This document shows positions 15,484 through 41,893 of a stretch of DNA of 55,172 nt, in pieces. The position numbers were made by a program, and so were the translations under genes. Within the stretch, counting starts at the first letter, position 1. Every line of letters begins with the position of its first letter. The notes beneath the pieces are model-generated. The model was not told where the DNA came from and made no database searches. It saw only the letters and a list, made by a program, of their open reading frames with translations. Origin of the DNA: Gemmatimonadota bacterium (GTDB lineage Bacteria > 4572-55 > J002); NCBI GenBank assembly GCA_003697105.1, contig RFFQ01000170.1:1-55172 (forward strand), written 5' to 3'.

Positions 15484-15519
15484 CAGGGGTCATTCCTCCG
15501 AGAAGCGGAGAAACTCTGC

Positions 15520-15548
15520 TTGACATCCTCTTCACATTTTGGTAATAT
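15520..15548 (+). promoter_or_regulatory. sigma70-type promoter
   Basis: TTGACA-17 bp-TAATAT with TGn extension. Confidence 0.65.
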
Positions 15549-15609
15549 TTTAAACTGAACAATGCATAATATAGCAGCCATTTGTCTTTGAACCATTTGA
15601 GGTGGTACG

Positions 15610-18600: not shown

Positions 18601-19110
18601 AAACCGGTCACCAAAAACATCTATCCGGGTTTAGGGGAGTTGACGGTGAATTTGGAAGCAGAGACACCTCGTTTAGCCACCGCTCCGGAAACACCCGCAC
18701 CGGAACAACCGGTAAGCCGTCCCCCGTTATTGGCATCTGCGAGTATCAACGGCAATATGGGGCGAAGCGGCGCCCAGAAGATCGATCTCACAAAACCCAG
18801 CACCCAATTAACCGCGCTACCAACATCCTACCGGCGGGGAGTTAAACTTCTAGGGTCAACCGCACAACTACCCGCCGAATTAACCCAATACGCCGAATTA
18901 CGGGTCGCTATTGACACCGTAACAGATATTTATATCAACGGGCACTATCAAGCGAGTACGCCACTAAGCAAACGTATCAAACTGGCACCGGGGGATCACA
19001 TCATCCGAATCGTGGACCCGCAAGGGATTTATCGCGATTATGTGAAAAAGGTCAGTGTGAACGTCGGGGATCAAATCTCGATCTCTACCTCAGACTTGAA
19101 ACACCGGTAA
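15610..19110 (+). CDS. Hanks-type Ser/Thr (pseudo)kinase with long acidic/Pro-rich linker, one TM and C-terminal PEGA domains
   Basis: Kinase-fold motifs (HRNLKP, SDFGLA, DIFSLG); TM at VWAAGLLILINAGLFFG; PEGA repeats S.P.GA.VYING. Confidence 0.9.
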   Translation: MKTIGKYEIVEELDKGDVGTYYRVQDLVNETSFLIQELYPKHANDDNFVRRFQRAVKASEFLQHDNILNTFEFGKSETSVFNVSDYHDGLTVSKLLARVKKIPLEVSCEIIIQSCQGLKKAHQENIIHRNLKPNFILVGRDGIVRISDFGLAYNDEKLGSIHLVPAQIGTAHYLSSELALGMKLDQRADIFSLGIIFYEMLTGVNPFAAETFAATFTKLKSEEPPEALMNLNPELPERINTIVQKMLKKNRNDRYKTCDDVLDDLASFLKSVALPSGKELLIQYMQSPESYAPTPIPAEKPPIVAPPPSTPVETPVTSEETAFFEVDVPASPPVQPVTPADESFDLDLDMTPDVPVTSPPPAEPVASTANDFLDLDTPAAPAPPVETVSSSADDDFLDLDIPAPTPAPPVADQVDGGTQPVSSSTDDDFLDLDIPTAVTTPEPTPASTTDDDFLDLDTPPPASETPGTPPEPATLDDDFLDLDAPAPEITPASPPQQEEETSFFDVGAPPAAPASEPAGVETPDTAEDDAFFNTVEGPPEQVTPEEVDETAVFENPLFQTGEPVAAKQPPSDTSDDLIFTEKTDEIELTAGVTASEETSILSDVDLASEFKEPTPVEAPSARSEEPPMPPPEPLDEDLQFTDFNEDVEILEDIPELEDTKVIEPVPQTAKAEPKPKPEPKPEPPKPKAETPKPKPKPAPPKPKAETPKPKPKPAPPKPKAETPKPSEPEPKAVKPHPSSPVDEKWVKYLVWAAGLLILINAGLFFGLRNPQEAVLLVESTPDNAKVAVNGIVRASQTPAIIRALKPGEHLIELTNGDLVFQHTVTLEGGKKYRLVATLYDPSLLEEMEEPASTPTVIAEESENLRQVKILSEPSGAYIYINGEPAGTSPSTVNLPLGTVEVKLIAVGYEDYVTEIGHTETPQELKITLTPIEQPAEVVAETPTTPDQPEETTFSTTISTNPPGATVYVQGKAYDQKTPLSLELPTGDYPVRIEIEGYKPVTKNIYPGLGELTVNLEAETPRLATAPETPAPEQPVSRPPLLASASINGNMGRSGAQKIDLTKPSTQLTALPTSYRRGVKLLGSTAQLPAELTQYAELRVAIDTVTDIYINGHYQASTPLSKRIKLAPGDHIIRIVDPQGIYRDYVKKVSVNVGDQISISTSDLKHR
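16630..17070 (+). repeat. five to six in-frame DDDFLDLD(I/T/A)P motifs separated by Pro/Ala/Thr spacers
   Basis: Copies near 16717, 16786, 16884, 16957 and 17035 plus a degenerate one near 16630. Confidence 0.85.
17656..17784 (+). repeat. 48-bp in-frame tandem repeat (PPKPKAETPKPKPKPA, about 2.7 copies)
   Basis: Units start at 17656, 17704 and 17752 and are nearly identical. Confidence 0.92.
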
Positions 19111-22654: not shown

Positions 22655-23911
22655 CTATTCTCCCATTTCATTGAAAGTACTATCCATGACATCAATGACA
22701 GTGCGGCGATTCTTCCGACGGTTTTCTTCACTGGTATTGGGCACCAACGGTTCAGATTCACCTTTCCCAATAACAATCATGCGTTCTTGGGAAATATTGA
22801 AATTCCGCGAAAGGTAATCTGCTACCGCTTGTGCTCGTCTTTCAGATAATTTCTGATTATATTCTGCACTTCCCAAATCACAGGTATGTCCAGTAATACG
22901 GATGGGACTGTTCGGGTGGTTTTGCAGCGCCATACCTACTTCATTTAACAGGGCTTGCGCCTCTGGTTTTAAGTCAGCTTTGTTTAGGTCAAACATCACT
23001 TTGTCGGAAAGTTCAAAGGTTTCCAGCGGGATATTGCTGGGGCGCATGGGGACATATACATCTTCCGGTTCAAGCAAAATCGATAAGATCGCCAAACTAT
23101 CAGACTCAAACCGAATCCGTCGTGATTGCAAGATGTAACCTTCTTTTTCCGCGGTCACATCATGGATATGGGCAAGGTCTATTTTGATGGTCACCGGACT
23201 CGCTCCAACGTATGTTTGTCCAAGATAGACCTCAGCCGGGGAGGGGTCGGTTTGAATCAACACCGAGGGACGGGTATCGGTTTGAGTTTGGGTACAATCG
23301 CCATCCAAAATACCGTCGGGATCCGCAAAATCTGCTTCTAACCGCCGGGTAGTGTTCGCATGGAGTTGTGCTTTTTGCCGATACTCTTGTTTTAGGCGCG
23401 GGTCACTTTCGTTTTCGAGCAACCGGCAATAGGTCAGAGCCAAATAATAAAATCCTTCCGCCCGGTCGGGGCTGAGTTCAATTGCCCGGAGCAGGGTCTG
23501 TTCGGCATGGGAAAGCATATTTTTTTTGAGGTATGTTCGCCCCAACCCAATGTATGCCGGTCCGAAAAACGGGTCATAATCAATAGCCATCAAAAATTCC
23601 TGCTGGGCTTTGTCCAGTAGCCCCACCGAAAGATACCGCTCACCATCGATCAAATTACCTTCAGTATCCCCATATCCGGTAAACCACGTTTGCCGGATGG
23701 CTTCCACGTCTTTTCCAGAGGTAGAACGTCGCTTGGGATCATATTGTACTTCACCCTCTTTAGCATCGCCGTTCTGCACACCCCGTGCAAACACATCAAA
23801 CTCGTTTTGGGGGGGCTGATAGGTCTCGCGGGGTTTACCGGCGCAACTGGCAACCAGCAAAACAACCCCCAACAGGGTAAAAAAGCGCCCCCATAAAATA
23901 TTTTTTCTCAT
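22655..23911 (-). CDS. OmpA-family lipoprotein with TPR and PEGA domains
   Basis: Lipobox VASC; TPRs; PEGA; OmpA motif GHTCDLGSAEYNQKLSERRA...NRR. Confidence 0.9.
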   Translation of the reverse strand: MRKNILWGRFFTLLGVVLLVASCAGKPRETYQPPQNEFDVFARGVQNGDAKEGEVQYDPKRRSTSGKDVEAIRQTWFTGYGDTEGNLIDGERYLSVGLLDKAQQEFLMAIDYDPFFGPAYIGLGRTYLKKNMLSHAEQTLLRAIELSPDRAEGFYYLALTYCRLLENESDPRLKQEYRQKAQLHANTTRRLEADFADPDGILDGDCTQTQTDTRPSVLIQTDPSPAEVYLGQTYVGASPVTIKIDLAHIHDVTAEKEGYILQSRRIRFESDSLAILSILLEPEDVYVPMRPSNIPLETFELSDKVMFDLNKADLKPEAQALLNEVGMALQNHPNSPIRITGHTCDLGSAEYNQKLSERRAQAVADYLSRNFNISQERMIVIGKGESEPLVPNTSEENRRKNRRTVIDVMDSTFNEMGE

Positions 23912-25929: not shown

Positions 25930-27054
25930 CTATTGGTCTAAGATGCGTTGGTAGTAAGCTTCATAACGTGGGATAATCACCTGCGGAGAGAATGATCGCA
26001 AGGCATGTTCGCGCCCTTTACGTCCCATTTCACGCCGGAGGTCGTGATCTTTCAGCAACCGGATCGCATAATCAGCCATCGTATCCACGTCACCGACTTC
26101 CGCCAAATAACCGGTCTCCCCGGATAGTACCACTTCTCGCAGACCACCCGCATTGGAACCGATTACCGGCACACCCGAACTCATGGCTTCCAACGCGGAA
26201 AGCCCAAAACTTTCGTGTTCGCTGGGGAAAAGCATCAGATCACTGAGGGCTAACAAATCGGGTATGCCATCTTGCTTCCCCAAATAGCGAATTTTATCAC
26301 AAATCTTGAGTTGCCGGCAATAGGTTTCCGAAGAAACCCGTTCTGGACCATCACCGACCATCAGCAAAATGGCATCAACTTCTTGTTGGACCCGGTAAAA
26401 AATATCCACCACATCTTTGATCCGCTTGACCGGACGGAAATTGGAGATATGAATCAGCACTTTTTTACCCCGAGAAAGCTGGCAACGACGCATATTACGG
26501 GAGAGAACTCCAGAGAACAAATCTGTATCAATAAAATTCGGAATCACCTCAATGGGTCGCTGGATTTGCAAAGTGCGGATCGTCTCCTGACGCATCCACT
26601 CCGAAACGGTCGTGACCCCATCACTTTTTTCAATAGAAAATTGGGTGATCGGCAAAAAAGAGGCGTCTGTACCCACAATGGTAATGTCCGTACCGTGTAA
26701 GGTAGTGATAACTTTAACCTTATCCGCCCCGACAATTTGTTGTGCCAGATACCCACTGGTCGCATGAGGGATGGCATAATGAACATGTAGCAAATCGAGG
26801 TTTTCGTGGCGGATAATATCGCTCATTTTGGCGGCTAACGAGATCGCATACGGTTGGTACTCAAACAGAGGATATTTCATGACCTCCACTTCGTGAAAAA
26901 AGATATTTTCATGAAAGTAATGATGAAGGCGAGCCGGCATAGCATAGCTAATAAAATGCACCGCATGACCTCGATTGGCGAGTTCCTTGCCCAACTCCGT
27001 CGCAATGATGCCGCTACCGCCATAGGTCGGGTAACAAGTGATACCGATTTTCAT
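25930..27054 (-). CDS. bshA: N-acetyl-alpha-D-glucosaminyl L-malate synthase
   Basis: [53 protein letters not shown]. Confidence 0.96.
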
Positions 27055-27077
27055 GCAAGTTCCTTTTGACAAATAGG

Positions 27078-27809
27078 TTATAATGACAAAATAGCCATGA
27101 CATTCTGGGTTGAAACCGGTTCGGACATCCAAAACGGTTCACCATAGCGCACTTGAATTTTGGAGCCCCAATAACTTGCCCGTCCGGTAATGCCTTCCCA
27201 AAACGTTTTACTGCTGATGTACGTCTCCGGCTCACCGGTGGAAGCATTGGCTTGATAAAATTGGCTCTGGTATGCTTGAATGGCGACAAGTTTGTACTCA
27301 AACACATCCGAGACATCCACAATAATCGTGGGTTGCACTGGGATGTAATGGGTAAAATAATAGAGAATCTTAAGCGGTCGATACGGTGTTTGACCGGTAT
27401 CAATTGCCCGCAATCCACTATAAAAAGCGGCTTCTTTTACCAAGTAGCTCGCATGGACGTGATCGGGATGGCGGTCTTCTGGATAGGGGATCAAAATCAA
27501 GTGAGGTTGAAATTCGCGTAACGTCTGAATCACTCGTAACCGGTGTTCGGGAGTCTGCGCAATACCCCCATCTGGGATTTCCAGATTAACACGAACATCC
27601 AACCCCAGAAGCGTACTTGCCGCTTGTGCTTCTTCCGCACGGATTTCGGGTGTCCCGCGCGTGCCCATCTCACCGCGGGTAAGGTCGCAGATACCGGTAC
27701 GATACCCGTGTTGTTTGGATTTGAGCAAAGTTCCACCGCAAAAAAGCTCCCCATCATCTGGATGTGGAGCAAACACGAGGATATCCAATTTCGTGCTTGA
27801 ATCCGGCAT
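27078..27809 (-). CDS. bshB1: bacillithiol biosynthesis deacetylase
   Basis: PHPDDGEL, DLTRGEMGTRG, DRHPDH. Confidence 0.93.
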   Translation of the reverse strand: MPDSSTKLDILVFAPHPDDGELFCGGTLLKSKQHGYRTGICDLTRGEMGTRGTPEIRAEEAQAASTLLGLDVRVNLEIPDGGIAQTPEHRLRVIQTLREFQPHLILIPYPEDRHPDHVHASYLVKEAAFYSGLRAIDTGQTPYRPLKILYYFTHYIPVQPTIIVDVSDVFEYKLVAIQAYQSQFYQANASTGEPETYISSKTFWEGITGRASYWGSKIQVRYGEPFWMSEPVSTQNVMAILSL

Positions 27810-27817
27810 AATGACCT

Positions 27818-29425
27818 CTATAATTCAATAAGTCGGTGCGCTACCGGTCGATCATCGATTGCGCCATAAATGGTTTTTATCAGATCAAAGCCATAGCGAA
27901 TCAGGTAATACACAATGTTAAACACACGTTCTTGCAAATTCCCATTCGGGTAGAGGTGAGCTTGTATTTTGGCGAGCTGTCCGGTGATCACCTTCTGGTT
28001 TTTTTGTTGAGCCGCAATGGAACGCTCTTCCAACTTATCAATTTGATATTTAATCTTTTGTAAAGCGTTCTCGGTGGCAGACGCCAAATTGGGGTCAATT
28101 GACCCCACCAATTGTGCCAACGAGCGCAACTCGGCACTCATATTCGCATGAACCTGCGCAAACACCGGCGCTAAATCGATATCCACATCACCGATAACCC
28201 GCCGGAACAGACTTTTACTATCCAGAAACACATCGGTCAGTGAGAGATGATATTTGGCTAAGGATTTACGAATTTTGCCTTCTATAATCGTAAAGGACGC
28301 CCGTGGATAGATCAACGGCATCGCCTGTTCATACAAGTGATACGCCGCTTTGAGTTGGGCAAAATAGGCAATTTCCCCCGGACCTGCCACGTATGCCACC
28401 GTCGGGAACAGTATATCTTGCAGAATGGGGCGCAACACTACATCCGTCGTAAATTTTAACGGATGTGCTTCTATTTCCTGACATAATTCCGTTTCACTAA
28501 AAGCGTGAAGTCCCGCCTGAAACTGATCCCCTTCAATCCGGATACGCTGACGTATTCCATCAACAGTATAAAACAGATGAAGTTGAGAATCTCGTAGCTG
28601 AATCTGTTGGTGGTAGCCGGCATCTTTTAGAGCGTTGGTTTGAGATTGAAGGGCAGAATCCAAAGCGGAGGCGTCACTCACGGCTTTTTGGAATACCGGT
28701 ATATATAGATTCGCACAGGCTTCATCCAATGGATTGAACAACACCAAGCCATAGGTTGCCATTAACTGCGCCAAAAATCGCCCAAAAGCCCCGGAAAACG
28801 TGTATTCTGGGCGGTAGGTATCGTTCAAAAGCGCCAATACGGCAGGTAAAAAATCAGTTACGGGATTATCATCTACAAACGAGTCAATAATCTTGCGAAT
28901 TTCATCGCCCAATCTCCGTTGGCTCACAATTTGTGCCGAATTATCGGGTTGGGGGAGGCTCAGCCGGCGTAACTCGTTTTGCAGAGTGGCATAATCGATG
29001 TGATTCACTTCCGCAAAGTCATGATCAAAGGCTTCCAACCAAAAAACGGGCACACAAGGGACATCATACATCTCCTGCCATTGCGCCGCCAACTTGCAGG
29101 CAGTTAATGCTTTATAGATTGTGTACAAGGGACCGCCGAAAAGCCCAAGTTGTTGTCCGGTAACGATGGTACGAGCACCGTTTTTCAAATGTTGGATGTG
29201 CGTGAACGTCAATTCACTACTTCCAAATTCTCGATTTTGACGTTCCAGAACCGTAATCAACTGGGGGGAACACACCGGCAGGAACGACTCCTCCTGCAAG
29301 AAAAGGTGATCCACATCTGAAAAGCGATATTCAAAAAACGGGGTAATAGATTCGGTTTGATTCAAATAATCCTGATACAGTGAGCTGGTACCGGGCAATT
29401 CGGAGGCATTCACGGTGTGAGACAT
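27818..29425 (-). CDS. bshC: bacillithiol cysteine-adding enzyme
   Basis: VTGQQLGLFGGPLYTIYKA, VPVFW..DHDFAE, GPGEIAYFAQL, LQER. Confidence 0.95.
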   Translation of the reverse strand: MSHTVNASELPGTSSLYQDYLNQTESITPFFEYRFSDVDHLFLQEESFLPVCSPQLITVLERQNREFGSSELTFTHIQHLKNGARTIVTGQQLGLFGGPLYTIYKALTACKLAAQWQEMYDVPCVPVFWLEAFDHDFAEVNHIDYATLQNELRRLSLPQPDNSAQIVSQRRLGDEIRKIIDSFVDDNPVTDFLPAVLALLNDTYRPEYTFSGAFGRFLAQLMATYGLVLFNPLDEACANLYIPVFQKAVSDASALDSALQSQTNALKDAGYHQQIQLRDSQLHLFYTVDGIRQRIRIEGDQFQAGLHAFSETELCQEIEAHPLKFTTDVVLRPILQDILFPTVAYVAGPGEIAYFAQLKAAYHLYEQAMPLIYPRASFTIIEGKIRKSLAKYHLSLTDVFLDSKSLFRRVIGDVDIDLAPVFAQVHANMSAELRSLAQLVGSIDPNLASATENALQKIKYQIDKLEERSIAAQQKNQKVITGQLAKIQAHLYPNGNLQERVFNIVYYLIRYGFDLIKTIYGAIDDRPVAHRLIEL

Positions 29426-31780: not shown

Positions 31781-31818
31781 AAAAAGACCTGCTGAAGTGG
31801 TGCCAGCAGGTCTTTTTT
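31781..31818. terminator. bidirectional terminator
   Basis: AAAAAGACCTGCTG...CAGCAGGTCTTTTTT. Confidence 0.88.
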
Positions 31819-32944
31819 ATACCGTAAAGGTTTGAATAGCCTCAATCACGCGTGCTTGATCGGAGGGAGTCAAATCGTTGTAAAACGGAAGGCGAACAAG
31901 CCGGTCACTCACCGACTCGGTGACCGGACACATCCCCGGCTGGCCGCCCAATTGGCGTCCCATTTTAGAGAGATGGAGCGGCAAATAGTGAAAAACAGTT
32001 TGCACACCCCGGTCTCGCAGAAATGAGATAAACCGGTCCCGGCTTTCCAGCGTAGGCAATAGTAAGTAAAAGAGATGTGCGGAATGATGACAATGTGCGG
32101 GTACCACCGGCAATTGGACATCTTGTGCCGCTGCCCAATCCGAAAGTCCGGTGTAATACGTTGACCAGATTTCGTGCCGTCGCTTTTGAATCTGGTCTTT
32201 ATGTTCAAACTGAGCAAATAAAAATGCGGCTAATAGGTCGGAAGGTAAAAAGCTTGAACCAACATCCACCCACGTATATTTATCGACTTGACCTCGAAAA
32301 AACCGGCTACGGTCTGTGCCTTTCTCCCGGATAATTTCAGCGCGTTCAATAAACCTTTCCGCATTGATGAGCAACGCGCCCCCTTCGCCACAATGAAAAT
32401 TTTTGGTCTCATGGAAGCTTTGTGTCGCCAGAGCGCCAAACGTACCCAAATATTGACCATAGTAGGTTGCAAATAACCCGTGGGCATTATCCTCAATAAC
32501 TAAAATGTTGTGGTGGTTTGCGATGGACACAATCGCATTCATTTCGCACGCGACCCCCCCATAATGGACGGGTACAACGGCTCGGGTTCGCGGGGTTATT
32601 TTGGACTCCAATAGGGTTTCATCCAAATTGAGTGTGTCCGGACGGACATCAATAAACACCGGGGTTGCTCCTCGCACTAAAAACGCATTGACCGTCGAGA
32701 CAAACGTAAATGCCGGCACAATCACCTCGTCCCCGGGCTGAAGATTGAGCAACAGTGCGGACATTTCCAACGCATCGGTACAAGATGTTGTCAGCAATAC
32801 TTTTTTCACACCCAACGTATCTTGTAAAAACGCATGACATTTTTGAGTGAACACGCCGTCACCCGAAATTTTGCCGCGTTCTACTGCTTCCGTCATATAC
32901 TGCATTTCTTTCCCCGTCATGTGGGGTCGATTAAACCGGATCAT
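31817..32944 (-). CDS. rffA: dTDP-4-amino-4,6-dideoxyhexose transaminase (RffA/WecE)
   Basis: TTSCTDALE, SFHETKN..GEGG, EKGTDRSRFFRGQVDKYTWVD. Confidence 0.9.
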   Translation of the reverse strand: MIRFNRPHMTGKEMQYMTEAVERGKISGDGVFTQKCHAFLQDTLGVKKVLLTTSCTDALEMSALLLNLQPGDEVIVPAFTFVSTVNAFLVRGATPVFIDVRPDTLNLDETLLESKITPRTRAVVPVHYGGVACEMNAIVSIANHHNILVIEDNAHGLFATYYGQYLGTFGALATQSFHETKNFHCGEGGALLINAERFIERAEIIREKGTDRSRFFRGQVDKYTWVDVGSSFLPSDLLAAFLFAQFEHKDQIQKRRHEIWSTYYTGLSDWAAAQDVQLPVVPAHCHHSAHLFYLLLPTLESRDRFISFLRDRGVQTVFHYLPLHLSKMGRQLGGQPGMCPVTESVSDRLVRLPFYNDLTPSDQARVIEAIQTFTV

Positions 32945-33917
32945 GGACTGTTTCTATCCTCGCTTGAATAGACCGTAATGACAAACCTTCCTGAATGAAA
33001 AAGATGCCCCCCAGTGCCGAAACTACCCAAACCACCACCCGGTTTAAAAGCGCAACAGCCAGCCCCTGAGGTAACGCTACACCAAACATCGCAAGTGAGA
33101 CCGTGATAGTACCTTCCCGAATCCCCAAAGAACCCAACGTTACCGGTAACATCGAAACCAACGTCGTCAAAGACAAAACAACCACTAAATCCAAGAGATG
33201 AATATCTGCGCCAAAAGCACGTATAAAAAAATAAAATCGGAGTAACCGGGCAATATTGAATAAAACGGCAACGAAAAATGCGGAACTAAGCCGGGTGAAT
33301 GGAATACCAGCGATAATGTGCCGGAAAGAATCGTATTTCTCCCAGCCTAACCGGAGAAACCGGTCAAACCATGACTTTTTGAAAAGGAAAAAGTAACCCC
33401 CGATGAGGATGCCCAAACCTGCGCATACCAATAACCAGACGGGGTGAATGTTAACCTGCAAACTAAGTTGGTGCTGACGTGCGAGGTCAACAATCCGGTT
33501 GAAATCCATTAATACGATCAAACAACCCGCAGTGACCAATATCCCGAGTCCCATCAAGCGATCAAAAGAGATCAGAACAATGGGTTTCATCCATTCATCA
33601 TATTTTTGCCGGAGTGCAAATACCCGGTAGGCATCCCCACCGACATTGCTAAACAAAAAGTTGCTAAAAAATAGCCCAACAAAATAGAGCCTAAATACAA
33701 AACGGAATGATAACTCATATATTCTCAATAGGATATAAAGTCTTAGAATATCAAAGAACGTGGCACATATAAAAAAGACAAGCCCGATAAAAAAGGGTTG
33801 AAACCTTAAATTTCGGAAACTTTCAACGAGATTGCTGAAATTTACATGATAAATTAACCCGCCAAATAACCCCAGAACCAAGACGAGTTTAAGAATAAAA
33901 AAAACGTTTTTTTTCAT
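32931..33917 (-). CDS. lysylphosphatidylglycerol-synthase TM-domain / flippase-like protein (UPF0104)
   Basis: Multiple TMs, VGGDAYR, DRLMGL, LP.TLGSLGIRE. Confidence 0.82.
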   Translation of the reverse strand: MKKNVFFILKLVLVLGLFGGLIYHVNFSNLVESFRNLRFQPFFIGLVFFICATFFDILRLYILLRIYELSFRFVFRLYFVGLFFSNFLFSNVGGDAYRVFALRQKYDEWMKPIVLISFDRLMGLGILVTAGCLIVLMDFNRIVDLARQHQLSLQVNIHPVWLLVCAGLGILIGGYFFLFKKSWFDRFLRLGWEKYDSFRHIIAGIPFTRLSSAFFVAVLFNIARLLRFYFFIRAFGADIHLLDLVVVLSLTTLVSMLPVTLGSLGIREGTITVSLAMFGVALPQGLAVALLNRVVVWVVSALGGIFFIQEGLSLRSIQARIETVHDPV

Positions 33918-34755
33918 GTGGGCATTCGTTTTTTCGGGCAACAAATAGACAGCTCGTCCCGGTTGGGATCGTCTTTCCCTGTTTAATTTTAGCAAGTTCC
34001 GGGCGTAGCAACCGGCGAATCAGTTTAGAATCTACACCGCCAGACGTACCATGTTCGGATGTACTCGATAATAACCGGTTATTCCGGAAGAGTCTCAACC
34101 GGAAGGGGAGTGTCCGTAGCAGAAAAATCGGAACAATTAACGGCTGAAAAAAATAGGTAAAAAACACCATTTCGAATCGATCCAGTAAGCATTTTTGTAA
34201 CGTTTTGAAGGTGTAACGCCGGAAATGACCCGCCCGAACATCACTAAATGACCAGAGCCACGAGTACGCGGGTACCGTGCCATAAATAAGCCCGTGATCC
34301 GTTAAAATGGTGTGAATCAATTGAATAAAGCGGTCGTCATCTGGAATATGTTCCAGCACATCAAAAAATCCGACCGCACTCACCGATTTCGCCGGGAAAT
34401 GGGCATCTTCTAGTGTACTACAAATCACATTTGGGATTTGGCGATACGTTTTAGCATTGAACGCACCCGTAGCCCCCGGTTCGAGTAAGATAGCCTCCAC
34501 CCCATCGTCCAAGAGGCGGCGTGTAACAAACCCGTTCCCCCCACCGACATCCAACAAGATACCAGTTGGCGGGAATCGACGTACAATCGTTGAGATGCAC
34601 TCATTACGGTGTTGGAACCAAAACGAATCATCTTCAATTTGAAAACAATTCAGATTACCATCTTCAGGATATGAGATGGCAGACGTACTCCTCTCACTTC
34701 GCCAAATTCCGAGATCATCTTGATATAAATTTGGATTTAATTGATTTACATTCAT
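33889..34755 (-). CDS. class I SAM-dependent methyltransferase
   Basis: SFWFQHRN, LDVGGGNG, DVLEHI, TVPA..WLWS..D..AGHFRRY. Confidence 0.88.
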   Translation of the reverse strand: MNVNQLNPNLYQDDLGIWRSERSTSAISYPEDGNLNCFQIEDDSFWFQHRNECISTIVRRFPPTGILLDVGGGNGFVTRRLLDDGVEAILLEPGATGAFNAKTYRQIPNVICSTLEDAHFPAKSVSAVGFFDVLEHIPDDDRFIQLIHTILTDHGLIYGTVPAYSWLWSFSDVRAGHFRRYTFKTLQKCLLDRFEMVFFTYFFQPLIVPIFLLRTLPFRLRLFRNNRLLSSTSEHGTSGGVDSKLIRRLLRPELAKIKQGKTIPTGTSCLFVARKNECPHEKKRFFYS

Positions 34756-34788
34756 CTTGAAGTTCTGAAGTATTGCGCACTACATGGT

Positions 34789-35685
34789 TTAAGCAAGCGG
34801 TACAGGACGCCCATCCCCTAAAATGACAGGCGAGTTCTGAAAAAGTTCATCTACATAGCGGTCATCGGAATGGAACATCTCCGCAACTCGCTGGTAATCC
34901 CTTTCGGAGTATTTATCTTCAGTGGGTGGTTTTGGCGCTGTTGAAGTTTGGGTAGAACCCAAATAATCAAACCAATTTCGGACAACGCGAAGAACCGGTG
35001 CCGGCATAGTTTTGATTAGGGCATCCACAACACCCCGTTTTTGCAACAGGCGGTCAAACCACTCAATCCGGCGACGACCCCGCGCATTTATTTTTTTATT
35101 GGTGTAATTTCCTTCTTCAAAATAAGGGGGAACACCGATAAACCGTTCAAGCGCTTGCAACAAGGCTAAGGAATGCGTGCCTAAAATGGAAAAATCGTAT
35201 AAAAACAAGTTTGAGCCAAATTCATCCCGAAAGCGGGAGATGGTATTGCGAATTTTACCATCATCAAAATTAAAAATGACCTGTTTTCCTTCGCGTTCTA
35301 CCGTGCACCCATTTAAAAATTCTTGGAACGGCGGCACCACAAAATTTCCGTCGTATTGTTCGTATAAGGAAAAAATCCATTCAGTCGGTTTTCGGATCCC
35401 CAGAATAATTTTGGAATCTGGGTTAAAGTCTAAGATGCGGTCAATCGCTCGTGGGTCCATGAAATAATTTCCACAAATATCAATTGCCATTTGGTTATCC
35501 CGCATGTCAGTGAAAAAATTTAGATACCATTCCAACCCATTATCAAAATTATAAGCAAAATACGCCAGCTCCTTACGCTGAGGTACGTAGATATGCGGGT
35601 GCTTTTGAAGATTATGATATAAAAAGGTCGTCCCAGATCGGGACATCCCAGCATGAATTACAATCCGATTTCGATCTACCATCAT
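34789..35685 (-). CDS. sulfotransferase family protein
   Basis: 5'-PSB loop GMSRSGTTFL, KELAYF, IRKP..WIFS. Confidence 0.85.
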   Translation of the reverse strand: MMVDRNRIVIHAGMSRSGTTFLYHNLQKHPHIYVPQRKELAYFAYNFDNGLEWYLNFFTDMRDNQMAIDICGNYFMDPRAIDRILDFNPDSKIILGIRKPTEWIFSLYEQYDGNFVVPPFQEFLNGCTVEREGKQVIFNFDDGKIRNTISRFRDEFGSNLFLYDFSILGTHSLALLQALERFIGVPPYFEEGNYTNKKINARGRRRIEWFDRLLQKRGVVDALIKTMPAPVLRVVRNWFDYLGSTQTSTAPKPPTEDKYSERDYQRVAEMFHSDDRYVDELFQNSPVILGDGRPVPLA

Positions 35686-35706
35686 GTGATACCTATCCTG
35701 TTGAAA

Positions 35707-36840
35707 TTATAAAACAGATTTCAGCGTATAAAAGACATCTTCAAATAAAAAATAAGCCGTATGGTGGGGTAATAACTCAGATTCATTACAGAGGAGTTGG
35801 ATTCGAGTTTGTTCCTGAGCAACATGCACCGGGTCTGTGCTATAATTTAGCGAAAAATGGGCACGTTGAATGGACACCGGTTCCGTAAACGAACGGGGGT
35901 CATAACTGGTTTTGATGTCAGGGTACATTAACGGATATTCCAGAGCCAGCATCTCGGGGAAACAGGTATATTCGGTATATTGGATGAGGTCCGGCGGCAA
36001 TAGGGCTTGATATTTCCCCACGGATTGAGGCGTTACTCCCGCTACCGGTTGAAATGAGGAGTTCCCCATCCACGGTTCACCATTTTGATCCAAAATGCCC
36101 GCCTGAAATAGATCAGAAGGAAAGCTTGCGATCTCCAGCCAATTCGCCAGTCGGTTGAGCATCTCCACCGGCTTCGCTACGATATCCTCATACCGCACCC
36201 AGACAAAGTTTGGGTGGTGTTGCAGGTGCAACGCATACGCCACACTTTTACGCCAATTTCGGAGATTAAATAAGGTGGGGCGTGCGCTCCCAATATAGGT
36301 CTTTCCGTTTCCATAACCCATCGAGGTCAGTACATCGCGCGGATCACGAATTACAATCAAACATTTAAAGCCCTGATCGAGGAGAAACGGTAAAAATTCC
36401 TCACAAAGGACCTCTTTTGAGCCTACATATTCTACAGATTTTCCCTTTTGGCGAAAGAAATATAAAAACGCCTTAAAAATGTGGAGCCACACCCCCTTAG
36501 TAAGATGATCGATAAAATCAGAGAGACGATCCAACCTTGTGTTTTGCCCAGTGTACCCTTCCATCGCGATAAATAGACGTTCTACTTGATGCGGCGTCAA
36601 CGTATAATCCTGTAAAAAGCGATGGAATTGATCCAGAGTATATCGAGTTTCTAAGAAGCCATGCGTCAGCGCATAATATTCATCTTCACCACATTCTTGG
36701 CGGAGAAAATCACGTTTGGCTTGAATAAATAAATACGGGAAGGGTTGCGATAACACCGATAGTTGAGGATGGTTACAGAGTAATTTATCCAGCAAGGTTG
36801 TCCCCGACCGTAACATCCCCGTGAGGAAAAGATACTTCAT
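35707..36840 (-). CDS. sulfotransferase family protein
   Basis: GMLRSGTTLL, IRDPRDVLTS, VRYEDIV. Confidence 0.88.
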   Translation of the reverse strand: MKYLFLTGMLRSGTTLLDKLLCNHPQLSVLSQPFPYLFIQAKRDFLRQECGEDEYYALTHGFLETRYTLDQFHRFLQDYTLTPHQVERLFIAMEGYTGQNTRLDRLSDFIDHLTKGVWLHIFKAFLYFFRQKGKSVEYVGSKEVLCEEFLPFLLDQGFKCLIVIRDPRDVLTSMGYGNGKTYIGSARPTLFNLRNWRKSVAYALHLQHHPNFVWVRYEDIVAKPVEMLNRLANWLEIASFPSDLFQAGILDQNGEPWMGNSSFQPVAGVTPQSVGKYQALLPPDLIQYTEYTCFPEMLALEYPLMYPDIKTSYDPRSFTEPVSIQRAHFSLNYSTDPVHVAQEQTRIQLLCNESELLPHHTAYFLFEDVFYTLKSVL

Positions 36841-37784
36841 GCCTCCAATCCTTGCTGCTGGCGGATCACATAGGTGGGTTTATGTTCTACACCGGATATA
36901 ATACGGAGAAGGTATTCGCCAATCACACCAATCGCAAACAGCAATAGCCCTCCGATAAATAAAATGGTTACCATCAGCGAAGACCAGCCCGCAATGGCGA
37001 CCCCCCAAACCACCTTTTTAATCAGGATATAAAGCGCCAGCAAAAAGCTAAATAGAGAAATTGTAATACCGATATAGCCAATTGATTTTAATAAAAAGGC
37101 AGAATTATTGATAATCAAATTACTAAATACACGGACCAACTTACCAAAGGTATATCCGGTTTTACCTTCTTTCCGTTTCCCATGTTCTGCCGGCACGCCC
37201 ACAATATCCTTGCTGACATAAAACATCAATGCCGGAATAAATGGATTGGGGGTATGAATGGTGAGCATAGCGTCAATGACGGATCGCCGGATTAACCGGA
37301 ATGAGGACAGTTGAATATGCTTGGGTTTGCCAATTAAAATATGGTCAAACCAACCTTTTAATTTGCTGGTGATACGCTTAAAAGCACTATGGTACTTTTT
37401 GCGAAATTCAATAATGACAATATCATGATGTTGCTGGGCAATCAGTTTGGGAATATCTTCGGGGTAATGTTGTAAATCATCATCCATGGTAATGATATAA
37501 TCGCCGCGGGCACGTGCCATTCCGCAAAGTGTCGCCGCTTGCTGACCAAAATTCCGCATTAACTGAATAATTCGGATGTGCGAATTGGATTGAGCCAATT
37601 GGGTTAATACCCGCCAGGTCTCTGGACTGGGCGAAGCATCATCAATAAATATTAATTCATAATCCGCCGCTGGTAGTTGTTCAAAAACGGCATGGACCCG
37701 ATCCGAAAGTTCGACCAAACTCTGCGCAGTGTTGTAAACCGGAACCACTATCGAATAAAGGGTAGAGGGGGCAGATGCGTTCAT
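36837..37784 (-). CDS. GT2 polyprenyl-phosphate glycosyltransferase (ArnC/GtrB-like)
   Basis: SIVVPVYN, RNFGQQAA, MDDDLQH, two C-terminal TMs, GEYLLRI. Confidence 0.9.
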   Translation of the reverse strand: MNASAPSTLYSIVVPVYNTAQSLVELSDRVHAVFEQLPAADYELIFIDDASPSPETWRVLTQLAQSNSHIRIIQLMRNFGQQAATLCGMARARGDYIITMDDDLQHYPEDIPKLIAQQHHDIVIIEFRKKYHSAFKRITSKLKGWFDHILIGKPKHIQLSSFRLIRRSVIDAMLTIHTPNPFIPALMFYVSKDIVGVPAEHGKRKEGKTGYTFGKLVRVFSNLIINNSAFLLKSIGYIGITISLFSFLLALYILIKKVVWGVAIAGWSSLMVTILFIGGLLLFAIGVIGEYLLRIISGVEHKPTYVIRQQQGLEA

Positions 37785-38479
37785 GAGTGGGAAAAGCTTT
37801 TCATGTACTTTGTGGCGTCCGGTCCCGTATTGAAAATCAGGTCAATAATACTGACCTCATGGGCAAACGGCGGATACAACTGGGGATATTCAGGGTAACC
37901 GGAATAATCCATCCATTCTAACTGTATGTTCTCCGAACGAAATACTTCCTCGGATAGATAGGCTTTAGCGGCGGGTCCCGAGAGATAACTTGTCGCGTTG
38001 ACTTTTTTGAGTAGTTCAATGACACGTTCGGCTTTTTTGTGGGTTAAAGCATAATTTTCGGAGTTATCAAATTCAGTCGTGATCCCCAATATATGGTGGC
38101 TGATAAATTTAATAAAAGTTTGATTTAATTCGGATAATCTCCGCCACGTCTGCCCCCAATAAAAATCTTTGATGACCGGTGCGTACTGTTTGAAAAAGGG
38201 TGCTTTGGAATAATTCGCTTCAATAATATTCCAATGTTTGCGTTGCCATGAAGAATCCCGCAACTCAACTTCATTGATCAACCGGTGTTCATCCGTACCA
38301 CACGGGATTGACAACCATTTTAGCCCTTGGGGAGTTTTTATTCGATTCCGATTGCGCCAATCCAGCTTTGTATATTGGAGGTCATCATGAAAAATAAAGA
38401 GATCGACCTGATTAATAATGTCAAAATATCCTTTCCACGGGATATAATTGGACTGGAGAATTGCCACTTTTTTACCCAT
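37781..38479 (-). CDS. WbqC family protein
   Basis: QSNYIPWKGYF, DD.QYTK.DWRNRN, YLSGPAA, YPQL. Confidence 0.92.
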   Translation of the reverse strand: MGKKVAILQSNYIPWKGYFDIINQVDLFIFHDDLQYTKLDWRNRNRIKTPQGLKWLSIPCGTDEHRLINEVELRDSSWQRKHWNIIEANYSKAPFFKQYAPVIKDFYWGQTWRRLSELNQTFIKFISHHILGITTEFDNSENYALTHKKAERVIELLKKVNATSYLSGPAAKAYLSEEVFRSENIQLEWMDYSGYPEYPQLYPPFAHEVSIIDLIFNTGPDATKYMKSFSHS

Positions 38480-38488
38480 CAGTTCATC

Positions 38489-40687
38489 TCATCTCAAATC
38501 AAATTGCAAAAAGCCGGCATTCTGAATCATCTCTTCCGTGACTTCAAACGTAACGGTGTCCTGTTCGGTGGTGACCGTGTACGGACCCGCCGTTGTAATA
38601 TCAGACATATTCACTGACAAATCAACCGTCGCATAGGGAACAACCGTTTGAACGATGCCGGTACTATCAGCAACCAGATGTTGTTGATATTCATAATGAC
38701 TACCGGTATTTGTCGTTAAGGGAGCAGTTAGTTTTAAGGATGCCTCCGGTAGCGTGTGGAATACCAGTTTGGCACCCGGCACCCGCTCATAAACTAAATA
38801 AGCCACATAAGAACCGGTGACTACCTCATTTGTCATCAAGTATGAACTTTCAAACACAAGCCGAAAATGCGATAAACCTTGCAATTGGTCTTTATCCAAA
38901 AGATACTGATGCCCTTTCATTTCCCCTAACGCGGTACCCATTGTTCGATAAAAGCGATCATAAAGCTCAAATTGAACATACCCTTCTTCGCTTTCATCAC
39001 TATCAAAATAATCCTGCTGCAGACGACCTTCTTTTTCCAAAGACTCAAAAACCCGGTAGGAATAAAAGAAGGAACCGGGTACCATCACATACCGAACATT
39101 TAAATCTTGGCATAACTGGTATGCTTCAGATTCATCTTCGGAAAGCAAAAAGGTATGGTATGCTCGATTACCGGCACTTTCCATCCGCATGTTGCTACCG
39201 GTAGTCGGTCGGTGCGCATGAAAAATAATGGAAAACCCATCGTTATAATGGGTCAAAATACCATATTCCGGGACATGCTCGGAAGTATAATAGCAACAGG
39301 TTGGGGGAGTATGCTCTTTTAGCCACGCTCCAACTTCATTAATGGCTTCGTAATGTGCGGGTTTAAAGATAATTTTGATGGAATAATAGCCCATAGCCAG
39401 AATCGATACAAACCCAATCAGGAAAAAAATCGCTACCCGAGACCGTATCCGGTCGGTACTATCTAGTTCCTGATATATATCCCAGAGTTTCACCATCACA
39501 AACGCCAGCAATAGAGCTAAAACCAGCGAAAACCCCTCGGCAAACCGGAACCCTTGGATGGCTAACGCACCAAATAAGATGCTCCAGATACAGAACAATA
39601 ACACGAGTTTTCGGTTATTCAGTTGGTAAAAAAGAAAACCCAATATAAACGGTAAAGAAACAACACTATATGAAAAATGCTGGAAAAACTCATCGGCACT
39701 CAGGTTTTCAAATTCTAAAATGGAAGTACCCGCCACAAAGTTAGCCCCCCCCATCACGGACTCAAGCACCTGACTCATAAATAGAATGACAACACCGATC
39801 AACATCACGTTAATGATAATCAGATTAGCGGGACGAACCTGTAGATATAAGCGATAGAGGAATAACGCCAGAAAGGTATAAAAAAACAGCAAAAAATGAA
39901 GACCCGAAAGCTGGTTAAAAATAAAGCGATCCAAATGGACAGACGTATCCAAAAGATAATAGGGTAAGATACTTACGCATGTGATAAAAAATCCCAGAGC
40001 CATAAACGACGTGAACGCTTTATGCTCCTTAAAAAAGAAAAAATACAGATAGATAAAAATCAAAAAAATGGTGAGAAAAACAACAATAAAGGTAAAGTTT
40101 AGTAAGGCAAGCGTAAGTGATATACCGAAAACAACCGCCCACCGGATGGCTTTCCACTCACTTTGAATCCCTTTTACCATTGACAAAACAAGACTCATAT
40201 AAAAGATGGCTTCAATACAGTGATGATCGGGGCGTCCAAATAACACGTATGCCAAATGGGGGGAAAAGAACATGAATAAAACTGCCGCCCAAAATCCGGT
40301 GCGGCGGTCCGCAATCGTTTTTCCGAGGTAATATAGTAACCAAATGGAAAAAATATTCATTAATGGAGGTACAACCGCTGCCGCCCATTCAAACTTTTCA
40401 CCAACGGGGTCTCCTAAGGTCAACAGAAAGGTGAGGCCGGCAAGTAAATAACTAAAAAGATGTTGCCGCATCGGCAACCCTTCGGGATAGTTATTATAGA
40501 AATCCAACGGCGCAATATACCCTTGATGCAGGATCATCTGGGCATGCCTCATATGATAATACCCATCAAATCCATAAAAGGTTAAAACGCCATTTTGGAC
40601 AAGGATTACATAATAGAGAGCGGGTAAGAAGAAAGCAAGAAGAGCTAAAAGAAGGTAAACAACTGGTTCCGTCCGATCATTAGCCAT
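38489..40687 (-). CDS. STT3/AglB-like GT-C oligosaccharyltransferase with an atypical sequon-binding motif
   Basis: GFDGYYHMR, GRPDHH, SILE, many TMs, YGILTHYNDG at the YG..SWWDYG position, C-terminal beta domain. Confidence 0.8.
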   Translation of the reverse strand: MANDRTEPVVYLLLALLAFFLPALYYVILVQNGVLTFYGFDGYYHMRHAQMILHQGYIAPLDFYNNYPEGLPMRQHLFSYLLAGLTFLLTLGDPVGEKFEWAAAVVPPLMNIFSIWLLYYLGKTIADRRTGFWAAVLFMFFSPHLAYVLFGRPDHHCIEAIFYMSLVLSMVKGIQSEWKAIRWAVVFGISLTLALLNFTFIVVFLTIFLIFIYLYFFFFKEHKAFTSFMALGFFITCVSILPYYLLDTSVHLDRFIFNQLSGLHFLLFFYTFLALFLYRLYLQVRPANLIIINVMLIGVVILFMSQVLESVMGGANFVAGTSILEFENLSADEFFQHFSYSVVSLPFILGFLFYQLNNRKLVLLFCIWSILFGALAIQGFRFAEGFSLVLALLLAFVMVKLWDIYQELDSTDRIRSRVAIFFLIGFVSILAMGYYSIKIIFKPAHYEAINEVGAWLKEHTPPTCCYYTSEHVPEYGILTHYNDGFSIIFHAHRPTTGSNMRMESAGNRAYHTFLLSEDESEAYQLCQDLNVRYVMVPGSFFYSYRVFESLEKEGRLQQDYFDSDESEEGYVQFELYDRFYRTMGTALGEMKGHQYLLDKDQLQGLSHFRLVFESSYLMTNEVVTGSYVAYLVYERVPGAKLVFHTLPEASLKLTAPLTTNTGSHYEYQQHLVADSTGIVQTVVPYATVDLSVNMSDITTAGPYTVTTEQDTVTFEVTEEMIQNAGFLQFDLR

Positions 40688-40710
40688 ATGGGTCTAGTTT
40701 ATAAAAGTTA

Positions 40711-41169
40711 TTAATCATTGGTGTATTGATAATCCAACGCATGGCAAGGAAACTTATCATACTCCGCATCCGGCGGATCATAGGGCCACGGGTCTCCGTT
40801 ATCGGGCCGGACCCCAGGACCTAAAGGCGACCAGACAATAATATTCCCCGTAGAGACATCCCCCCAAATTCCATATTGCTGCCCCGGTTTACCACCAGCA
40901 ACTTCAGGTATCTTGGTAAAATGATGTGCGTTGATCAGGTTTGTCCAACCGTCCGTACTACCATCCACATTTTGCTGGGTAAACTGCATGTACAATTCAA
41001 TCTGGAGAACGATTTCGCGCATGTCCTTTTTAGCTCGGGCACACAATGCTTTCTGCTGAACCGTACCAAATGAACGGATCGCAATGGTAGCAAGCACGCC
41101 GAGAATAACTAAGACAATAATGAGTTCGACGATAGTAAAACCGACAGATCGTTTCATCATGAGCATCAC
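40711..41169 (-). CDS. type IV pilin / pseudopilin (minor); exact start uncertain
   Basis: G|FTIVELIIVLVILGVLATIAI prepilin motif. Confidence 0.88.
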   Translation of the reverse strand: MMLMMKRSVGFTIVELIIVLVILGVLATIAIRSFGTVQQKALCARAKKDMREIVLQIELYMQFTQQNVDGSTDGWTNLINAHHFTKIPEVAGGKPGQQYGIWGDVSTGNIIVWSPLGPGVRPDNGDPWPYDPPDAEYDKFPCHALDYQYTND

Positions 41170-41180
41170 GATTAAATAGG

Positions 41181-41220
41181 AACAAGAAAGGGTAGGTTTG
41201 TTTAGAACCTACCCTTGCTT
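41181..41220 (-). terminator. terminator/attenuating hairpin after the major pilin
   Basis: AAGGGTAGGTT...AACCTACCCTT. Confidence 0.7.
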
Positions 41221-41253
41221 CTACGTGAACAAAACGCTAGTTCGTCCAATTAA

Positions 41254-41652
41254 TTATTGCAACACACAGCACTTACCAACACCATTGTTTGCGGCAGCAA
41301 CGTTGATCTTACCATTAGCAATACTTGTAGAGATCACATAAGCAGTGGCATTGCTGTCATTGTTGAACGGATTCGCCGGGATCGACTTCAGATACGGGCC
41401 ATCATAGCCAGACGGACCCGTTGCGGCTACTAAATTCGCCACACTCGAAACATCGGCGCTGGTATCGGTCATGTACTTGTTAGCCGCGTCCAAAATCTGC
41501 TTCAGGTTAGCAATACAAGCTTTGCACTTCGCTTTATTCTGAACTTTCAGGAAGTTCGGAATCGCGATAGCGGCAAGGATACCGATGATGACCACAACAA
41601 TCATCAACTCGATGAGCGTGAAACCGCTCTTGCTATTACGAAAGTTCTTCAT
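41254..41652 (-). CDS. pilA: major type IVa pilin
   Basis: MKNFRNSKSG|FTLIELMIVVVIIGILAAIAIPNF; AAGGAGG SD; own promoter and terminator. Confidence 0.9.
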   Translation of the reverse strand: MKNFRNSKSGFTLIELMIVVVIIGILAAIAIPNFLKVQNKAKCKACIANLKQILDAANKYMTDTSADVSSVANLVAATGPSGYDGPYLKSIPANPFNNDSNATAYVISTSIANGKINVAAANNGVGKCCVLQ

Positions 41653-41746
41653 GAGACATCCTCCTTGAAGATTGAAGAAAAGTGAATTGAGAAAGAATTT
41701 ACACATCGGTGTTTTTTTATTTCCACCATCTGGGCAAGGAGAAACC

Positions 41747-41761
41747 GCAACCCTTATACCA
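41747..41761 (-). promoter_or_regulatory. sigma54 -24/-12 promoter
   Basis: Minus strand TGGTAT-AAGGG-TTGC (GG-N10-GC). Confidence 0.75.
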
Positions 41762-41779
41762 TACCGGCAGTAACCTTTG

Positions 41780-41792
41780 TAACTAACTGATA
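41780..41792 (-). promoter_or_regulatory. IHF site
   Basis: TATCAG-TTAG-TTA fits WATCAR-N4-TTR, just upstream of the -24 element. Confidence 0.55.
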
Positions 41793-41893
41793 TTAAATAC
41801 CGGTAAAAGCTTAAAGCTACGAACGTTTACGTTTTTTTAATCTGGATGCAGGTTGCAAGATACAAATCATATTTGCAATTTGCAATTTTAGGA

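Follow-up and report, generated by a model that had tools for sequence, protein, structure and literature searches.

We analyzed a stretch of 55,172 nucleotides from a Gemmatimonadota bacterium (contig RFFQ01000170.1; hereafter, the window), in which a putative operon combines two type IV prepilin genes with an STT3-family transferase and a set of sugar-processing enzymes. At positions 31817-41706 of the minus strand, ten same-strand open reading frames (ORFs) show operon-like packing, with intergenic gaps of -107 to +84 bases. In the order of transcription, they encode prepilin 1, prepilin 2, an AglB/STT3-like glycosyltransferase of fold type C (GT-C), a WbqC-family protein, a family 2 glycosyltransferase (GT2), two sulfotransferases, a methyltransferase, a flippase-like protein and a WecE/RffA aminotransferase; the gene families were assigned with Pfam and NCBIfam profile searches of the window ORFs. 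An earlier note on this DNA had described ten tightly packed genes, all of which were recovered from the ORF list, on the minus strand and at the same coordinates. The note had extended the locus to 41890; positions 41707-41890 are a non-coding promoter region, and the start of PilA most likely lies at 41652. The note had also remarked on the lack of an initiating PglC/WecA transferase, in agreement with our scan of the whole window (ORFs of at least 100 aa against Pfam), in which no phosphoglycosyl transferase of the PglC/WecA type was found. The features of the locus, in transcription order, are as follows:

41746-41761, minus strand: possible promoter of the sigma-54 type (TGGTAT-N5-TTGCG), roughly 95 bases ahead of the start codon of pilA
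41254-41652 (listed ORF to 41706), minus strand: prepilin 1, PilA-like (N_methyl, 38.4 bits)
41188-41216, minus strand: hairpin with an 11-bp stem and a T-rich tail between pilA and the pilin 2 gene, a possible attenuating terminator (consensus scan)
40711-41169, minus strand: prepilin 2, with KRSVG followed by FTIVEL (N_methyl, 24.8 bits; GspH, PilA and GspG models, E 1e-6 to 3e-7)
38489-40687, minus strand: AglB/STT3-like GT-C of 732 aa (Pfam STT3, AglB_core-like and AglB_L1, all above cut-offs)
37781-38479, minus strand: WbqC-family protein (PF08889, 264 bits), with a predicted ligase fold resembling BshC and class I aminoacyl-tRNA synthetases (HUP)
36837-37784, minus strand: GT2 of the ArnC/GtrB/PgfS type (ArnC, 173 bits; PgfS, 144 bits; both below equivalog cut-offs)
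35707-36840, minus strand: soluble sulfotransferase 2, with the 3'-phosphoadenosine-5'-phosphosulfate (PAPS) loop GMLRSGTT and no membrane segment (Sulfotransfer_3, 53.6 bits)
34789-35685, minus strand: soluble sulfotransferase 1, PAPS loop GMSRSGTT (Sulfotransfer_3, 27.4 bits, borderline against a cut-off of 27)
33889-34755, minus strand: class I S-adenosylmethionine (SAM)-dependent methyltransferase (Methyltransf_23, 43.6 bits; Methyltransf_11, 36.9 bits)
32931-33995, minus strand: flippase-like polytopic membrane protein (LPG_synthase_TM, 99 bits; TIGR00374, 61 bits), with a later ATG near 33917 as the probable start
31817-32944, minus strand: WecE/RffA-type 4-aminotransferase acting on dTDP-4-keto-6-deoxyhexose (NF008687, 575 bits, cut-off 375; TIGR02379, 534 bits, cut-off 434.85)

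The transferase is the only STT3-family gene of the host genome, and its reading frame of 732 codons is intact. A profile built from the query and 29 relatives matched the AglB-L protein of A. fulgidus over its full length (E 8e-113), followed by STT3A (1e-31) and PglB (4e-8), and gave no match to ArnT or PMT at E <= 1. The AlphaFold2 (AF2) model of the protein is confident (pLDDT 87.5, pTM 0.89), and its Foldseek TM-scores were 0.77-0.84 against A. fulgidus AglB-L (3WAK, 7E9S), 0.55-0.65 against eukaryotic STT3, 0.48-0.57 against PglB, 0.53-0.56 against DPY19, 0.26-0.37 against ArnT and approximately 0.21 against PMT. The earlier note had assigned the enzyme to STT3/AglB and had named ArnT/PMT as the competing group; the profile E-value of 8e-113 to AglB-L, together with the TM-scores to AglB-L versus those to ArnT, rules out the latter grouping, so that the AglB assignment holds by both profile and fold. 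The architecture, a multi-helix membrane domain followed by the C-terminal periplasmic AglB core and L1 domains, is that of glycosyltransferase family 66 (GT66). The match to TIGR04154, the archaeosortase A-associated STT3 subfamily (234 bits, E 3e-69), lies below the cut-off of 450, and thus the protein is related to this subfamily without being a member.

The polar positions expected of the active site are retained, namely, D41, D154-H155-H156, S-I-L-E325 (TIXE motif) and R381, and the same residues occur in most of 150 representatives of the family (D41 in 147, D154 in 149, E325 in 146, R381 in 149). Reading the equivalence to the AglB-L motifs from the profile alignment, we take D41 to be the catalytic Asp of external loop 1, D154-x-H the second Asp-x-Asp/His motif, E325 the Glu of the TIXE motif in external loop 5, and R381 the phosphate-binding Arg. 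The retained residues and the predicted structure make it highly probable that the protein is an active AglB-type transferase. All characterized members of the AglB-L family that we know of act on protein.

The genes that follow the transferase resemble a pathway for a lipid-linked sugar. The GT2 has two C-terminal hydrophobic membrane segments (approximately residues 229-299), as in ArnC, GtrB and DPMS, which places it among the GT2s of three-component glycosylation systems, and the aminotransferase scores above the NCBIfam equivalog cut-off for WecE. Precursor genes are found elsewhere in the host genome (RmlB, 481 bits; RmlA, 424 bits; adenosine-5'-phosphosulfate (APS) kinase in a 627-aa ORF, 247 bits). 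It should be noted that on contig C130 of this genome (G000), positions 562-6136, RmlA, two dehydratase/epimerase-type short-chain dehydrogenase/reductase genes and the 627-aa APS kinase ORF lie together, a possible source of dTDP-sugar and PAPS precursors for sulfated deoxy-sugar glycans. There is no small flippase gene of the GtrA or EamA type at the locus, where the LPG_synthase_TM protein is the flippase candidate instead. Since a single glycosyltransferase is present at the locus, the glycan is probably a monosaccharide, and we consider it fairly likely that the donor is a lipid-phosphate-linked monosaccharide based on a 4-amino-6-deoxyhexose.

The role of WbqC is suggested by its predicted structure. 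The AF2 model (pLDDT 94) superimposes on BshC (4wbd) with a Z-score of 14.8 and a root-mean-square deviation of 3.1 Å over 220 of 232 residues, and further matches were obtained with class I lysyl-tRNA synthetase (Z 11.8) and MshC (Z 6.6). These matches come from VIA-align alone; there was no sequence relative among solved structures and no Foldseek match at E <= 1e-3. The BshC/MshC fold is that of ATP-dependent ligases, and these two enzymes acylate amino sugars. A functional study of WbqC (PF08889) was not found in the literature searched, which excluded subscription journals. We detected at least 585 relatives of WbqC and examined 80 loci from many phyla, at 50-67% identity. Within 7 kb of the WbqC gene, a WecE homologue was present in 58 of these loci, a GT2 of the type found here in 50, a methyltransferase in 10, a sulfotransferase in four and a flippase-like gene in two; all of these counts are lower bounds because the locus lengths vary. 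Because of the BshC-like fold and the WecE-type neighbor in 58 of the 80 loci, the family is suggested to comprise ATP-dependent ligases that may N-acylate dTDP-4-amino-4,6-dideoxyhexoses. The earlier proposals of an ArnC/GtrB-type GT2, an RffA 4-aminotransferase and acylation by WbqC thus agree, respectively, with the C-terminal helices typical of polyprenyl-phosphate glycosyltransferases, the equivalog score and the predicted ligase fold.

The other enzymes of the locus also recur next to WbqC. Homologues of sulfotransferase 2 adjoin WbqC in three loci (L117, L161, L168), and the flippase-like family does so in two of them (L117, L168); homologues of sulfotransferase 1 are present in a fourth locus, L185 (2e-55 and 7e-40), and match sulfotransferase models over a longer stretch. 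The WbqC-WecE-GT2 cassette is a mobile and widely used module; what sets this genome apart is that the module is joined to an AglB-type transferase and to pilins. As a separate observation, L185, on the chromosome of an Arcobacteraceae metagenome-assembled genome (1084-17664), contains co-oriented PAPS genes (PAPS_reduct-type CysD, CysN, APS kinase, CysQ), a GT2, hexapeptide transferases and WbqC, along with two sulfotransferases, two small EamA (ArnE/F-like) genes and a DegT aminotransferase, followed by two large ORFs (758 and 555 aa) that match no Pfam family; the sulfated-sugar cassette is present here in a fuller form. The large ORFs without Pfam matches that stand beside WbqC in L185 and L117 were compared with STT3 and are not detectably STT3-like (hhalign probabilities of 0.2% and 27%).

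At the upstream end of the operon, PilA most likely starts with the ATG at 41652, behind the ribosome-binding site AAGGAGG, and comprises the leader MKNFRNSKSG, the sequence FTLIEL and a mature part of about 122 aa. It matches the PilA_Myxo (E 2e-18) and GspG (8e-16) models below their equivalog cut-offs. Both prepilins carry a class III signal peptide (G followed by a sequence of the F-T-L-I-E type) and a hydrophobic N-terminal helix, as is characteristic of type IV pilins and pseudopilins, and the host genome encodes a prepilin peptidase (Peptidase_A24, contig C123) and has 12 matches to T2SSE-type ATPases above the family cut-off. The sigma-54-like pattern TGGYAYN5TTGCR has a single match in the window; at least one match was present in 23 of 100 shuffled sequences, so that the element is suggestive at most. 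Scans of the region for sigma-70 promoters and terminators gave counts that were not above the shuffled expectation. The element before pilA and the hairpin after it, if functional, would allow high expression of pilA with partial read-through into the genes for pilin 2 and glycosylation. The DNA was found in two DNA runs from a single hot-spring metagenome study, which contain 0.94 and 0.90 of the words sampled, and the sequencing-run search listed no RNA run that contained the locus.

The stop codon of pilin 2 lies 23 bases ahead of the start of the transferase gene. This spacing and the shared orientation argue for co-transcription of the pilins and the transferase. We therefore favor, at about even chances, the interpretation that the locus is a three-component-style operon for a lipid-monophosphate sugar, in which the AglB-type transferase modifies one or both of the co-encoded type IV pilins. 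The proposed route would begin with RmlA and RmlB, which are encoded elsewhere in the genome and would produce dTDP-4-keto-6-deoxyglucose, from which WecE would form a dTDP-4-amino-4,6-dideoxyhexose. WbqC, by its fold a ligase of the ATP-dependent BshC/MshC kind, may then attach an acyl group, perhaps an amino acid, to the 4-amino nitrogen, and the membrane-anchored ArnC-like GT2 would load the sugar onto undecaprenyl phosphate. On the cytoplasmic face, the two soluble PAPS-dependent sulfotransferases and the SAM methyltransferase would tailor the sugar; the flippase-like protein would move the lipid-linked sugar outward, where the AglB-type GT-C would hand it to the acceptor. The order of the tailoring steps and the identity of the sugar are inferred. 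The acceptor and the linkage are read from the gene order, by which a pilin is as good a candidate for the acceptor as all others combined; shielding of the pili from phages may be proposed on the same grounds. A predicted complex of the AglB-like protein with mature PilA scored 0.00 in two runs, for which controls were not folded, and is evidence neither for nor against binding.

Several observations weigh against this interpretation, beginning with the acceptor pocket. The WWDYG motif of AglB-type enzymes reads the N-x-S/T sequon by binding its Ser/Thr at position +2, and the DK/MI motif completes the Ser/Thr pocket. Where WWDYG of 3VU0 aligns, the query has HYNDG (residues 480-484), with neither the Trp nor the Asp retained, and neither D..K nor M..I is evident where DIEMETGK of AglB-L aligns, in a gappy part of the alignment. 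Among the 150 representatives, 12 have WWDYG at this position, 51 have xWDxG and 126 retain the second W, and HYNDG is unique to the query. The canonical WWDYG is absent from all 21 AglB-like proteins of bacterial genomes, which read xW..GH. PilA contains two N-x-S/T sites (NDS and NAT, in FNNDSNATAY), a number close to that expected, by our estimate, from its content of Asn and Ser/Thr, and pilin 2 contains none. For the archaeal-like route proposed in the earlier note, N-glycosylation at N-x-S/T is doubtful because the sequon-reading WWDYG is HYNDG and no DK/MI motif is evident, and the chance-level sequons of PilA point the same way. The classical Ser/Thr pocket has probably been lost, and if the acceptor atom is still the amide of Asn, the classical sequon is probably not read; a linkage to Asn at all seems to us somewhat doubtful. 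Variation at this position is also seen in a pair of tandem AglB-like paralogues of 797 and 778 aa that follow a sigma-54 response regulator in another genome (L038, G156:C167, 740-5703) and have the pocket motifs ISDYG and LWDYG.

The genomic contexts of relatives likewise count against a pilin acceptor. Full-length AglB-like genes (E < 1e-60) with non-canonical pocket motifs were found in 24 of 400 other sampled bacterial genomes. Within approximately 1.5 kb of the AglB-like gene, a pilin-like ORF was present in two of these 24 loci (G076, G276) and in one of five further loci from the phylum of G076 (G416, of the same family as G076), that is, in just three of 29 non-query loci, representing two lineages. 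To detect pilins, we used a regular expression that describes the class III signal, as well as phmmer searches with the two window pilins as queries, so that divergent pilins may have been missed. The closest relatives with context (L035, L036, L037) have no pilin in regions of 19.5-20 kb, i.e., about 8-9 kb on each side, and most other AglB-like loci (20 regions annotated) are in housekeeping contexts. The link to pilins is an adjacency in one genome; among 1.8 billion representatives, the best relative of the transferase is 26-29% identical, and none exceeds approximately 29-33%. Moreover, neither STT3 nor a pilin was found within 7 kb of WbqC in any of the 80 loci, and therefore the usual acceptor of the cassette is something else. 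Finally, four tailoring enzymes (WbqC, two sulfotransferases and the methyltransferase) are many for a monosaccharide made by a single glycosyltransferase. The linkage of pilin, STT3, GT2 and WbqC, for which the earlier note had called for a survey, is accordingly not conserved. Taken as a whole, the gene content described in that note was borne out; of its interpretation, the AglB-type GT-C and the donor pathway are supported, the archaeal-like N-glycosylation is doubtful at N-x-S/T, and the linkage is not conserved.

Among the loci with an adjacent pilin, G276 is a second, independent example of a pilus locus. Its AglB-like gene (L192, G276:C5, region 2189-18230; gene at 9077-11305, minus strand) is divergent from a prepilin gene (11505-12131), and the neighbors encode a GT2, DUF2304, UDP-galactopyranose mutase (Glf), a radical SAM enzyme, a T2SSF fragment and a secretin. 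In two genomes of one family, a 121-aa EamA-like protein resembling an ArnE/F subunit is encoded directly beside the AglB-like gene (L045, 2844-3209; L047, 11280-11645), which hints that such enzymes use lipid-monophosphate sugars. In three other loci (L039, L040, L050), a second GT-C, of the PMT_2 type, adjoins the AglB-like gene.

The origin of the transferase was addressed with database searches, a phylogenetic tree and nucleotide composition. A word-index search of 5.8 billion proteins returned three other relatives, the best of which is 24% identical, and an exhaustive search of 1.8 billion representatives returned 1444 relatives at E <= 1e-3 (best E 3.5e-49, 26% identity); a single-protein search of genome contigs with the transferase gave no relative. 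By profile search, the AglB-like gene is absent from the same-class genomes G001 and G002, which are too distant for a comparison of synteny or of the empty site (25-32% identity over fragments of the VWA neighbor); the host class has two GTDB species representatives in all. In a tree of 167 AglB-like proteins, from which sequences outside 600-950 aa had been dropped beforehand, the query is placed far from all others: its branch is very long, with 3.4 or more substitutions per site to any relative, and the local supports are low (0.29, 0.18 and 0.66). It falls inside a clade of 47 sequences, supported at 0.99, which mixes known bacterial copies with WWDYG-bearing ones, and the donor lineage cannot be named from this tree. 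The G+C content of the locus, 0.439, is the lowest of 564 overlapping 9.9-kb stretches of the 4.18-Mb assembly (median 0.486), and thus the block is not a chance arrangement. By gene, the values are 0.41-0.45 from STT3 through the flippase-like gene, and 0.47 for the pilins and 0.49 for WecE, both near the genome mean. Judged by composition, the block of low G+C that begins with STT3 and ends with the flippase-like gene was apparently gained by horizontal transfer and set behind native pilin genes.

This compositional pattern can also be read differently, namely, that the pilins are a mere landing site of an island and that the acceptor is lipid A, the lipopolysaccharide core, another surface glycan or a lipid, as with ArnT, GtrC, FlmK and Rgt. 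An insertion is suggested by the composition of the locus, which is the most G+C-poor 9.9-kb stretch of the assembly and in which the pilins and WecE have values nearer the genome mean; the peptide-sequon pocket is lost; the combination of an aminotransferase, an N-modifying enzyme, an ArnC-like GT2, a flippase and a GT-C follows the logic of the Arn pathway; and the common cassette, never seen beside a pilin or STT3, has other large membrane ORFs without Pfam matches next to it in L185 and L117. Conversely, the resemblance of the transferase to AglB-L in fold and profile extends from end to end and takes in the periplasmic core and L1, in a family whose characterized members, as far as we know, all act on protein; the transferase gene is co-oriented with pilin 2 at a short distance, and pilin adjacency recurs in two other lineages. 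We consider a non-protein acceptor unlikely on balance. A general system for periplasmic or surface proteins, with broad or different targets among which the pilin would be one or none, appears to us similarly improbable. It would account for the 26 of 29 non-query bacterial loci that have no adjacent pilin, mostly with housekeeping neighbors among those annotated, and for the presence of a sole STT3-family gene in the genome, and AglB and PglB are general oligosaccharyltransferases in their native hosts (in part according to passages of PMC5131992, otherwise as general background). However, the donor pathway and the transferase are packaged right behind two pilin genes, and general systems are normally not embedded in this way.

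There is very little probability, in our view, that the locus is a mosaic without joint function, in which the AglB-like protein is a decaying or non-catalytic remnant and the sugar cassette serves an unrelated pathway. The unique HYNDG and the long, poorly supported branch are compatible with decay, but the frame is intact, four catalytic or phosphate-binding positions are kept, the confident model is AglB-like over the whole length, and the packing is operon-like. The pilin-directed operon is therefore still preferred over each of the three alternatives. Its most specific form, which we put forward only tentatively and regard as rather unlikely in its entirety, is that a GT66 enzyme without the WWD/DK pocket has been re-targeted to type IV pilins, recognizes them without a sequon or through a new motif or atom, and attaches a single sulfated, methylated and amino-acylated 4-amino-4,6-dideoxyhexose from undecaprenyl monophosphate, with WbqC as the missing N-acylating ligase of many surface glycans.

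The locus is flanked by genes for a VWA protein and thioredoxin and by the housekeeping genes bshA, bshB and bshC. The bacterial nature of the host is shown by the bacillithiol genes, an OmpA-family protein, sigma-54 activators and the N-methyl-type prepilins. Relatives of its PurC, at 47-63% identity, are spread over many phyla. The bacillithiol set at 25930-29425 (minus strand) is formed by successive genes for a family 4 glycosyltransferase (BshA-like), a PIG-L deacetylase (BshB-like) and BshC, and is a useful taxonomic and physiological marker for a poorly sampled lineage. Elsewhere in the window, the gene at 15610-19110 codes for a Ser/Thr protein kinase of 1166 aa with fused PEGA domains, and that at 22655-23911 for an OmpA-family protein that also has a PEGA domain; an FHA-GAF-cyclase gene lies between the two, and this set may be an envelope signaling module.

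If this most specific form is correct, the locus would represent a new acceptor specificity in GT66. It would also add a third mechanistic class to the PglL/TfpO and TfpW types of bacterial pilin glycosylation, with a large, uncharacterized bacterial AglB-like family of variable pocket motifs behind it. A system of the preferred kind would provide an example of divergence of the GT66 acceptor pocket that is relevant for glyco-engineering, in a compact ten-gene unit suited to heterologous expression, and would hint at the role of WbqC, a widespread orphan family.

Bacterial pilins are O-glycosylated by PglL/TfpO or by TfpW. To our knowledge, bacterial N-oligosaccharyltransferases are known experimentally only as PglB-type enzymes, from Campylobacterota and Desulfobacterota. 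The PglB of Campylobacter uses an undecaprenyl-diphosphate heptasaccharide begun by PglC and reads D/E-x-N-x-S/T via WWDYG. The enzyme described here is likewise a bacterial member of the STT3 superfamily; however, it is much closer to AglB-L, its locus has no PglC-type gene, WWDYG is lacking, and the donor is probably monophosphate-linked. The tfpW gene adjoins a pilin gene, and the donor of TfpW is a polyprenyl-monophosphate sugar. The system of P. aeruginosa group IV pilins thus resembles the present locus in that a GT-C-type enzyme modifies a pilin, but by its description TfpW is not of the STT3/AglB family and O-links D-arabinofuranose oligomers, whereas the enzyme here is AglB-type with an unrelated sugar pathway. 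Glycosylated pilins and protection from pilus-specific phages are described for Pseudomonas aeruginosa in passages of two preprints (bioRxiv 10.1101/2020.04.19.049825 and 10.1101/150227).

Three-component periplasmic glycosylation is a common route, according to passages of PMC11127046. The ArnC/ArnE-F/ArnT and GtrA/GtrB/GtrC systems share with the locus an ArnC/GtrB-like GT2, a flippase or a candidate for it, an extracytoplasmic GT-C and the lack of a phosphoglycosyl transferase. The known systems act on lipid A or a glycan through a GT-C that resembles ArnT, GtrC or PMT, whereas the GT-C here is GT66/AglB-like and the flippase candidate is neither GtrA nor ArnE/F. Bacterial STT3 homologues were reported to be few and nested among euryarchaeal ones (Lombard 2016; passages of PMC4973528). 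Our literature search, which excluded subscription journals, gave no paper on a bacterial locus in which pilin genes, an AglB-type transferase and a complete donor pathway occur together, and the present locus suggests that bacterial pili may be decorated in a way not described before.

The nearest counterpart is archaeal. Compared to A. fulgidus AglB-L (3WAJ, 3WAK, 5GMY, 7E9S), the transferase has the same fold, domain order, catalytic Asp, Asp-x-His, TIXE Glu and Arg. The differences are the bacterial host, HYNDG in place of WWDYG, no evident DK/MI, a single glycosyltransferase, a dTDP-derived 4-amino-4,6-dideoxyhexose, and a flippase candidate of the LPG_synthase_TM type rather than one like AglR/Agl15. 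The targets of archaeal AglB include pilins and archaellins, as stated in passages of PMC5131992. In Haloferax volcanii, AglJ-type glycosyltransferases load sugars onto dolichol monophosphate, and sulfation of the lipid-linked sugar (Agl7) and methylation of a sugar precede the transfer by AglB (passages of PMC3871713); the same logic of loading by a GT2, cytoplasmic sulfation and methylation, flipping and transfer by AglB is recognizable here in the gene content.

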